NCBI RefSeq assembly: GCF_013315695.1
Contig: NZ_CP054353.1
Length of the DNA stretch: 64,000 nt
Origin: Escherichia coli
GTDB lineage: Bacteria; Pseudomonadota; Gammaproteobacteria; Enterobacterales; Enterobacteriaceae
Strand: one strand, 5' to 3'
In this document: positions 15,250-56,226 of the stretch, piece after piece
Layout: each line of letters begins with the position of its first letter
How positions within the stretch are numbered: the stretch's first letter is position 1
Notes under the pieces: generated by a model
What the model was told of the DNA's origin: nothing
Databases searched by the model: none
The model's input: only the letters and a program-made list of their open reading frames with translations
Made by a program: the position numbers and the translations under genes

Positions 15250-16143
15250 ATGAAACCGCAGGTGTACCACGTCGATGCTTTTACCTCTCAACCGTTTCGC
15301 GGCAATTCTGCCGGTGTTGTTTTCCCCGCCGATAATCTCAGCGAAGCGCAAATGCAGCTTATCGCCCGCGAATTAGGTCATTCCGAAACTGCTTTTCTGC
15401 TGCACAGCGACGACAGCGATGTGCGCATCCGCTACTTTACGCCAACGGTTGAAGTGCCGATTTGTGGTCACGCGACAGTAGCTGCGCACTATGTACGTGC
15501 AAAGGTGTTAGATTTAGGAAATTGCACGGTCTGGCAAACGTCACTGGCAGGAAAACACCGCGTGACTATCGAAAAGCATAACGATGATTATCGTATTTCG
15601 CTGGAACAAGGTACGCCGGGCTTTGAGCCACCGCTGGAAGGTGAAACACGAGCGGCGATTATCAACGCGCTTCATCTCACTGAAGACGATATTTTGCCTG
15701 GCTTGCCAATTCAGGTGGCAACCACAGGACACTCAAAAGTGATGATCCCACTGAAACCAGAAGTGGATATCGACGCCCTTTCGCCTGATCTTGCTGCGCT
15801 GACCGCTATCAGCAAACAGATTGGCTGCAATGGTTTCTTCCCGTTCCAGATCCGCCCAGGCAAAAACGAAACCGACGGTCGTATGTTCTCGCCTGCCATT
15901 GGTATTGTGGAAGATCCGGTGACCGGCAATGCCAATGGCCCGATGGGTGCATGGTTAGTACATCACAACGTATTGCCACACGATGGCAACGTGTTGCGTG
16001 TTAAAGGCCATCAGGGGCGCGCATTAGGGCGTGACGGCGTGATTGAAGTGACGGTGACAATTCGTGATAACCAACCGGAGAAAGTCACCATTTCTGGCAC
16101 GGCGGTGATTTTGTTTCATGCCGAATGGGCAATTGAACTCTGA
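15250..16143 (+). CDS. yddE: PhzF-family isomerase-like protein
   Basis: 297 aa, synteny downstream of narV. Confidence 0.85.
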   Translation: MKPQVYHVDAFTSQPFRGNSAGVVFPADNLSEAQMQLIARELGHSETAFLLHSDDSDVRIRYFTPTVEVPICGHATVAAHYVRAKVLDLGNCTVWQTSLAGKHRVTIEKHNDDYRISLEQGTPGFEPPLEGETRAAIINALHLTEDDILPGLPIQVATTGHSKVMIPLKPEVDIDALSPDLAALTAISKQIGCNGFFPFQIRPGKNETDGRMFSPAIGIVEDPVTGNANGPMGAWLVHHNVLPHDGNVLRVKGHQGRALGRDGVIEVTVTIRDNQPEKVTISGTAVILFHAEWAIEL

Positions 16144-27817: not shown

Positions 27818-28321
27818 TTATTGATAGTGTTTTATGTTCAGATAATGCCCGATGACTTTGTCATGCAGCTCCACCGATTTTGAGAACGACAGCGACTTCC
27901 GTCCCAGCCGTGCCAGGTGCTGCCTCAGATTCAGGTTATGCCGCTCAATTCGCTGCGTATATCGCTTGCTGATTACGTGCAGCTTTCCCTTCAGGCGGGA
28001 TTCATACAGCGGCCAGCCATCCGTCATCCATATCACCACGTCAAAGGGTGACAGCAGGCTCATAAGACGCCCCAGCGTCGCCATAGTGCGTTCACCGAAT
28101 ACGTGCGCAACAACCGTCTTCCGGAGCCTGTCATACGCGTAAAACAGCCAGCGCTGGCGCGATTTAGCCCCGACATAGCCCCACTGTTCGTCCATTTCCG
28201 CGCAGACGATGACGTCACTGCCCGGCTGTATGCGCGAGGTTACCGACTGCGGCCTGAGTTTTTTAAGTGACGTAAAATCGTGTTGAGGCCAACGCCCATA
28301 ATGCGGGCTGTTGCCCGGCAT
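27818..28321 (-). CDS. insB: IS1 InsB
   Basis: Identical translation to other copies. Confidence 0.95.
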
Positions 28322-32079: not shown

Positions 32080-32355
32080 GTGGCTTCTGTTTCTATCAGC
32101 TGTCCCTCCTGTTCAGCTACTGACGGGGTGGTGCGTAACGGCAAAAGCACCGCCGGACATCAGCGCTATCTCTGCTCTCACTGCCGTAAAACATGGCAAC
32201 TGCAGTTCACTTACACCGCTTCTCAACCCGGTACGCACCAGAAAATCATTGATATGGCCATGAATGGCGTTGGATGCCGGGCAACAGCCCGCATTATGGG
32301 CGTTGGCCTCAACACGATTTTACGTCACTTAAAAAACTCAGGCCGCAGTCGGTAA
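32080..32355 (+). CDS. insA: IS1 InsA
   Basis: Identical translation to other copies. Confidence 0.95.
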
Positions 32356-32777
32356 CCTCGCGCATACAGCCGGGCAGTGACGTCATCGTCTGCGCGGAAA
32401 TGGACGAACAGTGGGGCTATGTCGGGGCTAAATCGCGCCAGCGCTGGCTGTTTTACGCGTATGACAGGCTCCGGAAGACGGTTGTTGCGCACGTATTCGG
32501 TGAACGCACTATGGCGACGCTGGGGCGTCTTATGAGCCTGCTGTCACCCTTTGACGTGGTGATATGGATGACGGATGGCTGGCCGCTGTATGAATCCCGC
32601 CTGAAGGGAAAGCTGCACGTAATCAGCAAGCGATATACGCAGCGAATTGAGCGGCATAACCTGAATCTGAGGCAGCACCTGGCACGGCTGGGACGGAAGT
32701 CGCTGTCGTTCTCAAAATCGGTGGAGCTGCATGACAAAGTCATCGGGCATTATCTGAACATAAAACACTATCAATAA
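32274..32777 (+). CDS. insB: IS1 InsB
   Basis: Identical translation to other copies. Confidence 0.95.
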
Positions 32778-43342: not shown

Positions 43343-44515
43343 ATGCGTCTGTTTTCTATTCCTCCACCCACGCTACTGGCGGGGTTTCTGGCGGTATTAA
43401 TTGGCTACGCCAGTTCAGCGGCAATAATCTGGCAAGCAGCGATTGTCGCCGGAGCCACCACTGCACAAATCTCTGGCTGGATGACGGCGCTGGGGCTGGC
43501 AATGGGCGTCAGTACGCTGACTCTGACATTATGGTATCGCGTACCTGTTCTCACTGCATGGTCAACGCCTGGCGCGGCTTTGTTGGTCACCGGATTGCAG
43601 GGACTAACACTTAACGAAGCCATCGGCGTTTTTATTGTCACCAACGCGTTAATAGTCCTCTGCGGCATAACGGGACTCTTTGCTCGTCTGATGCGCATTA
43701 TTCCGCACTCGCTTGCGGCGGCAATGCTTGCCGGGATTTTATTACGCTTTGGTTTACAGGCGTTTGCGAGCCTGGATGGTCAATTTACGTTGTGTGGCAG
43801 TATGTTGCTGGTATGGCTGGCAACCAGGGCCGTTGAGCCGCGCTATGCGGTAATTGCCGCGATGATTATTGGGGTCGTGATCGTTATCGCGCAAGGTGAC
43901 GTTGTCACAACTGATGTTGTCTTTAAACCCGTTCTCCCCACTTATATTAGCCCTGATTTTTCGTTTGCTCACAGCCTGAGCGTTGCACTCCCCCTTTTTC
44001 TGGTGACGATGTCATCGCAAAACGCACCGGGTATCGCAGCAATGAAAGCAGCCGGGTATTCGGCTCCTGTTTCGCCGTTGATTGTGTTTACTGGATTGCT
44101 GGCACTGGTTTTTTCCCCTTTCGGCGTTTATTCCGTCGGTATTGCGGCAATCACCGCGGCTATTTGCCAAAGCCCGGAAGCGCATCCGGATAAAGATCAA
44201 CGTTGGCTGGCCGCTGCCGTTGCAGGCATTTTCTATTTGCTCGCAGGTCTGTTTGGTAGTGCCATTACCGGGATGATGGCTGCCCTGCCCGTAAGTTGGA
44301 TCCAGATGCTGGCAGGTCTGGCGCTGTTGAGTACCATTGGCGGCAGTTTGTATCAGGCGCTGCATAATGAGCGTGAGCGCGACGCGGCGGTGGTGGCATT
44401 TCTGGTAACGGCAAGTGGATTGACGCTGGTCGGGATTGGTTCTGCGTTTTGGGGATTAATTGCCGGAGGCGTTTGTTACGTGGTGTTGAATTTAATCGCT
44501 GACAGAAACCGATAA
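43343..44515 (+). CDS. ydcO: BenE-family benzoate-type membrane transporter
   Basis: Start MRLFSIPPPTLLAGF inside track ORF; about 390 aa. Confidence 0.85.
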   Translation: MRLFSIPPPTLLAGFLAVLIGYASSAAIIWQAAIVAGATTAQISGWMTALGLAMGVSTLTLTLWYRVPVLTAWSTPGAALLVTGLQGLTLNEAIGVFIVTNALIVLCGITGLFARLMRIIPHSLAAAMLAGILLRFGLQAFASLDGQFTLCGSMLLVWLATRAVEPRYAVIAAMIIGVVIVIAQGDVVTTDVVFKPVLPTYISPDFSFAHSLSVALPLFLVTMSSQNAPGIAAMKAAGYSAPVSPLIVFTGLLALVFSPFGVYSVGIAAITAAICQSPEAHPDKDQRWLAAAVAGIFYLLAGLFGSAITGMMAALPVSWIQMLAGLALLSTIGGSLYQALHNERERDAAVVAFLVTASGLTLVGIGSAFWGLIAGGVCYVVLNLIADRNR

Positions 44516-44518
44516 TAA

Positions 44519-44541
44519 AAAGCGCCATCTAACGATGGCGC
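44519..44541. terminator. Hairpin between convergent ydcO and ydcL
   Basis: gcgccatc-taac-gatggcgc. Confidence 0.5.
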
Positions 44542-44549
44542 GGCTGGAA

Positions 44550-45218
44550 TTACTTTTTGTTAACGTCAAACATGGTGGCATCGGTCGCCATGTCATCAAT
44601 AACTTGTTTAATATTTTCGAAAGCCATTGGCGTACTTTCGTTATTCAGGTCTTTACCTTCGCCCTGACGAACGACTTTGATAACCGGTTTATTAGTCGCT
44701 GCATCAATCAGCTCACCTTCAAAATAGAGGCGAGTATCCATGGTACGGTGGCCTGTAGCCATTTGCGTCCCCGCAACCACTAATGCAACAGGAACCACTT
44801 CATAGAATTGCAGCCCTTCTTTGCTGGTATCTACACCGGTAATGGCCCCACGGAAAATCAGACTACGCGGCCCAGCGGTGGTAACCAGTGGTTTACGCTG
44901 CGCTATCGCTTCTTTCATTTCGGTGTTGGTATAGTTCAAAATTTTATCCAGAACTTTCTGCCCTACCTGGGTAGAAGGTTTTGGTACCGGATAATAAGTG
45001 ATTGGGTTCCAGACGATGCTGTCATATTTGCTTTGATCAAAACTCGGGTCTACCCAACGTAAAACAGGTTTACCTGTTGCTGAGGTTGTTTCTTTTAAAT
45101 CAGAGTAATTGTTTAAAAAACCAGAATATTTATCTGGCTGGGTGATTTTAGAGGCACAACCAGACAGAGCCAACAAGCCGCATAAAGCTGCAACTTTCGC
45201 AAATGATGTGGTACGCAT
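44550..45218 (-). CDS. ydcL: Lipoprotein (DUF3313)
   Basis: 222 aa, lipobox LALSGC. Confidence 0.85.
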   Translation of the reverse strand: MRTTSFAKVAALCGLLALSGCASKITQPDKYSGFLNNYSDLKETTSATGKPVLRWVDPSFDQSKYDSIVWNPITYYPVPKPSTQVGQKVLDKILNYTNTEMKEAIAQRKPLVTTAGPRSLIFRGAITGVDTSKEGLQFYEVVPVALVVAGTQMATGHRTMDTRLYFEGELIDAATNKPVIKVVRQGEGKDLNNESTPMAFENIKQVIDDMATDATMFDVNKK

Positions 45219-55273: not shown

Positions 55274-55479
55274 TGACCAAAAACCTCTTTGCGTCACATT
55301 TTTACAACAATTATGGCAGAGAAGAATAATGCCATTGGAATGAAGAGAGTAACGAACGGCTAAACCGAATGACGAAAAATTCTGGAAAACAGCACGCAAT
55401 TTCGTCAAGTGATTATTTTCGTCCCTAAGGAAACCTCATAGGATGCCTGCGGGTGCCTGAGACTTTCTGTTTTCAGGCT

Positions 55480-55538
55480 AACCGGGAATCAGAAAGACGA
55501 AGGCCCCGACCGATATTTCTATCAACCGAGGCCAACGA

Positions 55539-55550
<12 letters not shown>
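55480..55550 (-). ncRNA. sokB: sokB antisense RNA (approximate extent); promoter -35 TTGCCG / 17 bp / -10 TATGAT on minus strand at about 55557..55585
   Basis: Near-consensus sigma-70 promoter reading antisense into mokB start region, as in hok/sok loci. Confidence 0.45.
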
Positions 55551-55746
<196 letters not shown>

Positions 55747-56161: not shown

Positions 56162-56226
56162 CTTCCGATGTAGGCCCGTATTCTTCGCCTGTACCACGGG
56201 TCGGTTTTAGTACAGGCGTTTTCTTT
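56162..56226 (+). ncRNA. rydC: RydC-like Hfq-dependent sRNA
   Basis: cttccgatgtaggcccgtattcttcgcctgtaccacgggtcggttttagtacaggcgttttcttt: 5' seed then hairpin gcctgtac/gtacaggc plus U-run; in the ydcA-cybB gap. Confidence 0.6.

Follow-up and report, generated by a model that had tools for sequence, protein, structure and literature searches.

The convergent genes ydcO and ydcL are separated in Escherichia coli K-12 by the insertion sequence IS609. The locus described here raises the question of whether the absence of this element from the window (the whole 64-kb stretch of E. coli DNA that was analysed) reflects a clean, unoccupied target and, if so, whether that target was ever filled. An earlier note, made from the letters of this DNA, had proposed an empty IS609 site between the two genes, to be checked by alignment with K-12 and by a genome search for related elements, and to be abandoned if transposase remnants were encountered in the interval.

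The ydcO–ydcL junction with and without IS609

The two genes were assigned from profile matches of their products, YdcO to the BenE family (NCBIfam TIGR00843, 4e-211) and YdcL to DUF3313 (Pfam PF11769, 4e-63). The limits of ydcO were taken from RefSeq, which gives the gene 1,173 nt at the identical locus of strains MS 21-1 and MSB1_4I (NZ_LR898874.1), where the convergent genes likewise stand 34 bp apart. Both stop codons and the intervening letters, TAAAAAGCGCCATCTAACGATGGCGCGGCTGGAA, were read directly in the window, and the 34-bp convergent arrangement described in the earlier note is thereby borne out. The coordinates of all features are collected in Table 1. In RefSeq, the YdcL accession WP_001261013.1 is common to empty and occupied loci. 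In several genomes whose IS609 site is empty, ydcL is instead split by IS1A or IS1B (e.g. NZ_CP173493.1, 376349-378125).

Table 1. Features of the ydcO–ydcL locus and structured RNAs elsewhere in the window (window coordinates)
Feature	Position	Strand	Description or basis
SECIS_3 element	864-922	-	Rfam, gathering-level; presumably in fdnG
ydcO	43343..44515	+	BenE-family transporter, 390 aa, ends ...NR*; stop TAA 44513-44515
16 nt TATCGGTTTCTGTCAG abutting the IS609 right end in K-12	44499..44514	-	Flank sequences
IS609 insertion point of K-12-type genomes	44514..44515	.	Between both bases, inside the ydcO stop TA|A; uninterrupted in the window
Intact IS609 target motif TTTAT (ATAAA on +)	44515..44519	-	Last five bases of the predicted ydcL terminator U-tract
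ydcO–ydcL intergenic spacer	44516..44549	.	34 bp exactly, without element-derived sequence
Hairpin, GC-rich 8-bp stem and 4-nt loop	44522..44541	-	Terminator scan, fold energy, stem conservation
ydcL	44550..45218	-	DUF3313 lipoprotein, 222 aa; stop TAA 44550-44552 (- strand)
sok antitoxin RNA (hokB/sokB locus)	55451-55602	+	Rfam, gathering-level
RydC sRNA	56162-56225	+	Rfam, gathering-level

The annotation of K-12 MG1655 places a 1,748-bp IS609 between ydcL and ydcO (NC_000913.3, 1503161-1504908), with its left end toward ydcL and its right end toward ydcO, the orientation seen in K-12-type genomes. The element comprises yncK, which is a pseudogene of tnpA interrupted by an internal stop, and, on the + strand of K-12, insQ (ydcM), which codes for a TnpB protein; the location of insQ given in the earlier note is thus correct. 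Both K-12 junctions were read, IS609 was removed in silico and the joined flanks were compared with the window. The alignment proposed in the earlier note accordingly returned the window base for base: the flanks were collinear throughout, without any duplication, deletion or extra bases, and with 5 SNPs within ±300 bp. The insertion junction defined by this virtual excision is unambiguous, and megablast matches in 5,416 genomes break at query positions 415/416, which correspond to the same two bases of the window. Hence the site is empty, as had been claimed, but it was misplaced in the earlier note; the true point lies one base to the left of the interval 44516-44549, within a stop codon. 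Because IS609 sits inside this codon, K-12 YdcO carries one additional C-terminal tyrosine (...NRY*, 391 aa) relative to the product encoded in the window. Over 6,254 bp, the window flanks and those of K-12 are 98.07% identical (120 mismatches).

Searches for IS609-derived sequence in the 64-kb window were negative at each level. IS609 DNA (blastn, word sizes 7 and 11) gave chance-level matches only, none of them near 44.5 kb. With tblastn, InsQ likewise gave chance-level matches only (best E = 0.017), and the intact IS609 TnpA from O157 reached no better than E = 1.5, again attributable to chance. The best InsQ match, at 15838-15963, was rejected since it lies inside yddE, a PhzF-family gene. 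At 44300-44800, no Rfam model matched at a cutoff as loose as E ≤ 1, and the only gathering-level matches in the whole window were sok, RydC and SECIS_3. All three are expected for this region of the E. coli chromosome. Transposase remnants, the observation that would have counted against an empty site, were therefore found neither in the interval nor in the window by blastn, tblastn or Rfam, and the site is confirmed as a clean empty IS609 target without remnants. It is extremely improbable that IS609 was instead removed by ordinary deletion or recombination, or collapsed through an assembly error, so that the site would not be a true empty target. Draft assemblies do at times drop IS elements, a general point with nothing specific to the present site, but the junction is base-exact, with flanks neither short nor extended, and the identical arrangement recurs in independent complete genomes, including MSB1_4I, MS 21-1 and OZ547117.

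Insertion sequences of another kind do occur in the window. Two inverted IS1A copies were located at 27818-28321 (- strand) and 32274-32777 (+ strand), within elements of about 27.8-28.5 kb and 32.1-32.9 kb, and flank mcbR-curA-mnaT-ydcZ-ydcY in a composite-transposon-like arrangement. In MS 21-1, a genome of the same lineage, only 94% of a 24-kb query is matched, split into 3 pieces, and the unmatched remainder is approximately as long as two IS1 elements; both IS1A copies are thus probably absent from this strain, and their insertion is probably recent. The same 24-kb query finds about 35 matching places per genome in the lineage of the window, presumably IS1 copies. The annotation of MSB1_4I shows ortT, an orphan toxin gene that adjoins the second IS1 at about 32.9-33.0 kb of the window, as truncated and without its N-terminus; of the hicAB toxin-antitoxin genes between yncJ and ydcR, it shows a 78-bp hicB remnant.

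Family and target motif of the element

InsQ, whose similarity to the structures of ISDra2 TnpB reaches E = 1.9e-54, is a TnpB homologue of full length with three Pfam domains, HTH_OrfB_IS605, OrfB_IS605 and a TNB/Zn-ribbon, and its D/E/D and CxxC positions are conserved in the alignment with ISDra2 TnpB. The TnpA encoded by the O157 copy of IS609 is a Y1 (IS200-like) transposase. In combination, these two assignments place IS609 in the IS200/IS605 family. The left end of such elements enters on the 3' side of a tetra- or pentanucleotide that is specific to the element, without duplication of the target (PMC5027513, PMC10055086). As the family inserts single-stranded DNA in this manner, an empty allele consists simply of the two K-12 flanks abutted.

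The target rule for IS609 was derived from five independent loci (ydcL|ydcO, yedK, DUF3251/nrdR, TetR/ytfB and gltX|yfeD). The sequence (T/C)TTAT was present directly 5' of the left end (CCGGTGCGCC...) at 5/5 loci; the flanks past the right end (...GGATGTCAA) were unrelated among the five, and no locus showed a duplication. The element-specific target is present in the window directly 5' of the insertion point, where the - strand reads GCGCTTTTTAT|TATCGGTTTC, with TATCGG following the junction. In the literature on IS609, insQ and ydcM, neither a transposon-associated motif (TAM) for IS609 nor an activity of InsQ was found; a NAR 2026 paper purified an 'IS609' TnpB without giving details.

The GC skew of the window is mostly negative on the + strand, albeit weak, and the - strand that carries TTTAT is the G-rich one. 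This strand corresponds to the + strand of K-12 at 1.50 Mb, in the right replichore, and we take it, from the positions of oriC and dif, to be the lagging-strand template. Such a placement, on that assumption, agrees with the preference of IS200/IS605 elements for the lagging-strand template (PMC5027513).

The hairpin in the spacer

The sole feature of the spacer is a hairpin with the arms and loop GCGCCATC-TAAC-GATGGCGC, which starts 8 nt past the ydcL stop codon and comprises 8 pairs, 6 of them GC. A terminator scan called this structure solely on the - strand, where TTTTTATTAT forms its tail. For RNA of that strand, a folding energy of -16.3 kcal/mol was obtained (z = -3.06), a stability matched by 2/200 shuffled sequences. 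The scan found 4 terminators in the region against 2.1 ± 1.8 expected, which is not significant by itself, so the reading of this hairpin as a terminator relies on fold energy, position and stem conservation rather than on the scan count. Conservation was assessed against an outgroup-like Escherichia genome that is 88% identical to the window (described below). None of the 16 stem positions had changed, versus 8/18 non-stem positions of the spacer (Fisher p = 0.003), which argues that the hairpin is under constraint; the U-tract of the same locus is degraded to GCGCTTCGGATTAT.

A GC-rich stem-loop followed by a U-tract past a stop codon, the arrangement of an intrinsic terminator, was thus found on the - strand only, and since the U-tract serves this strand alone, the hairpin is predicted, on the basis of its structure and conservation, to act as an intrinsic terminator for ydcL. 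The K-12 insertion leaves both hairpin and U-tract with ydcL, and ydcO there runs directly into the right end of IS609. The terminator hairpin described between the genes in the earlier note thus stands, and it reads as belonging to ydcL rather than to both genes. The hairpin could still be a bidirectional terminator for ydcO and ydcL, given that a single hairpin is often common to both genes of a convergent pair and that the + strand RNA folds with similar energy (-15.3 kcal/mol, z = -2.64), or it could be a structured element other than a terminator, which would also account for the retention of the stem amid changing flanks. Either role appears less probable, although not implausible: GGCUGGAAUUAC comes next to the stem in the + direction, with a U-run only about 13 nt downstream, so that the terminator scan does not call the hairpin on this strand, and no Rfam family matches it. 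Compared with a Rho-independent terminator of a convergent gene pair, the predicted ydcL terminator has the same GC-rich 8-bp stem, 4-nt loop and U-tract, but differs in that the U-tract is found on one strand only.

Empty and occupied alleles

Among 5,426 complete E. coli genomes, ydcO and ydcL are contiguous, as in the window, in 2,135 (~39%). The right-end junction IS609|ydcO was detected in 3,265 genomes (~60% occupied) and the left-end junction ydcL|IS609 in 3,267. IS609-like DNA is present somewhere in the genome in 5,015/5,426, and it follows by inclusion-exclusion that IS609 must be present elsewhere in at least 1,724 of the genomes whose ydcO|ydcL site is empty. One of these is O157:H7, in which an intact tnpA copy adjoins ytfB. 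The absence of IS609 from the window is thus an ordinary strain-to-strain difference, and the insertion is already annotated in K-12. Among the matches sampled, the lowest identity of an IS609 copy at ydcO|ydcL to that of K-12 is ~97.7%, and the ydcL flank of occupied genomes is 99.3-99.5% identical to the window; pseudogene decay, or gene conversion among IS609 copies, may underlie the greater divergence of the element.

The lineage of the window itself was addressed with a chimeric query composed of a unique 3-kb window segment and IS609, which yields a count only, without positions or completeness of the copies. Three matching places were obtained in each of MSB1_4I (100% identical to the window over 24 kb), MS 21-1 and OZ547117, i.e. 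the one unique segment and two others, which suggests that this lineage has two copies of IS609-like DNA at other positions. The genome search proposed in the earlier note has therefore a divided outcome: the 64-kb window is free of IS609, and close genomes seem, by count, to carry about two copies elsewhere.

When the joined K-12 flanks were used as query, EcN_Sk (NZ_CP172017.1, assembly GCF_044094645.1) was the only empty genome to match at 100%; the genome ranked second reached ≤99.3%. Across 50 kb, the identity of EcN_Sk to K-12 is 99.4-100%, with zero mismatches over 9,495 + 4,333 bp around the site, and at its junction (2626031-2626066) IS609 is missing to the base. This genome is best read as a secondary, scarless loss of IS609, given that the insertion is common to ~3,265 genomes in which both the flanks and the copies of the element have diverged; an assembly artefact is less likely. 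Relative to K-12, EcN_Sk also lacks hokB/sokB-trg', hicA-hicB' and curA-mcbR. Its name suggests Nissle 1917, but the region is K-12-like.

Whether the site in the window was never occupied or has been vacated leaves no trace in its letters, since excision of IS200/IS605 elements is scarless (PMC10055086, PMC5027513), and the matter was therefore weighed from the surrounding evidence. Very probably, the site in the window, with the adjoining ydcO stop codon, is an unoccupied chromosomal target of IS609 that has never been filled. The empty state is probably ancestral, as the outgroup-like Escherichia genome is also empty, with the identical 34-bp arrangement and without IS609. This genome (NZ_JAATUR010000023.1, SCPM-O-B-8794) is labelled 'E. 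coli' and is a GTDB species representative; since its core genes share only 88% identity with the window across 7.4 kb, it is probably, despite its label, a member of a different Escherichia species or of a cryptic clade. It was the one Escherichia record retrieved by an outgroup scan with an 18-mer at the ydcO 3' end, so that the polarity rests on one outgroup-like, E. coli-labelled genome; other Escherichia species presumably differ within this 18-mer, and the other 18 matches of the scan were rejected as chance matches in unrelated phyla. In the extract of this outgroup-like locus (positions 3640-3840), the altered U-tract leaves no TTTAT target where IS609 is inserted in K-12.

In the alternative case, the lineage of the window was once occupied and then lost IS609 through scarless excision catalysed by TnpA, which a further IS609 copy would have provided in trans, with a resulting donor joint identical to a virgin site. 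Several observations speak for this route: EcN_Sk appears to have lost the element base-exactly within K-12-identical flanks, the closest relatives of the window appear to hold other IS609-like copies, and some E. coli, e.g. O157, have an intact tnpA. A past excision is nevertheless improbable for the window. The empty outgroup-like genome, the 39% of complete E. coli genomes that are empty and the ~2% divergence of the window flanks from K-12 (120/6,254) together favour a site that was never occupied, and the K-12 haplotype linked to the insertion is found in only 1/2,135 empty genomes. Furthermore, if InsQ acts like characterised TnpBs, a vacated donor joint would be cut and the element restored, which would make losses rarer (PMC10055086).

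Taking the never-occupied reading as the preferred one, the following sequence of events can be proposed. In K-12-type genomes, IS609, with its Y1 TnpA and its presumed TnpB nuclease InsQ, landed 3' of TTTAT on the - strand, at the end of the U-tract of the predicted ydcL terminator. Single-stranded insertion without target duplication leaves the plain joined flanks as the empty allele, as seen in the window, and the hairpin would terminate transcription of ydcL, with no U-tract toward ydcO. The lineage of the window would never have been occupied, and a new IS609 insertion at its site, or cleavage there by a guide-RNA complex of InsQ originating from an occupied allele, would still be possible. 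Characterised TnpB guide-RNA complexes cut the 'donor joint', i.e. TAM plus right-end flank, and thereby restore the element (PMC10055086, PMC8612924). In the window, TTTAT followed by TATCGGTTTCTGTCAG joins the left-end motif to the right-end flank of the K-12 copy, which is true by construction for any empty allele, and constitutes a donor-joint-like sequence that the guide RNA of InsQ at the K-12 locus would be expected to match. A further, unlikely extension is that the empty allele is a live target, such that entry of an occupied allele by conjugation or transduction would lead to InsQ cleavage and homing of IS609, resident IS609 copies could insert here as well, and EcN_Sk would represent the reverse reaction.

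In the K-12 locus extract (L001), positions 4803-4919 (+), from the insQ 3' end to 10 nt past the IS609 right end, gave a match to the Rfam family HgcC (22.2 bits against a gathering threshold of 50, E = 0.021), at the expected place of a TnpB guide (omega) RNA. Both this match and one to RAGATH-18 (4793-4836) on the K-12 element are sub-threshold and were not used as evidence.

The presence or absence of an IS element between strains is routine, and the significance of the present locus beyond bookkeeping is small. Its concrete yield is an exact coordinate within the ydcO stop codon, a target motif for IS609, the frequencies of the two alleles (~39% and 60%) and one apparent scarless loss. 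The ydcL|ydcO locus could also provide a natural allele pair for asking whether the E. coli InsQ is a homing nuclease.

Relative to the ydcL|IS609|ydcO arrangement of K-12, the window represents the same locus with the same flanking bases, but lacks the 1,748-bp element, ends YdcO in ...NR* and differs by ~2% SNPs in the flanks. It likewise resembles the empty target, or 'donor joint', of IS608, ISDra2 and ISGst2, in which the same kind of short motif lies 5' of the left end, there is no duplication and the empty allele is seamless. The (T)TTAT motif of IS609, as derived from the five-locus comparison alone, resembles in particular the TAM of ISGst2, TTTAT (PMC10055086, PMC5027513).
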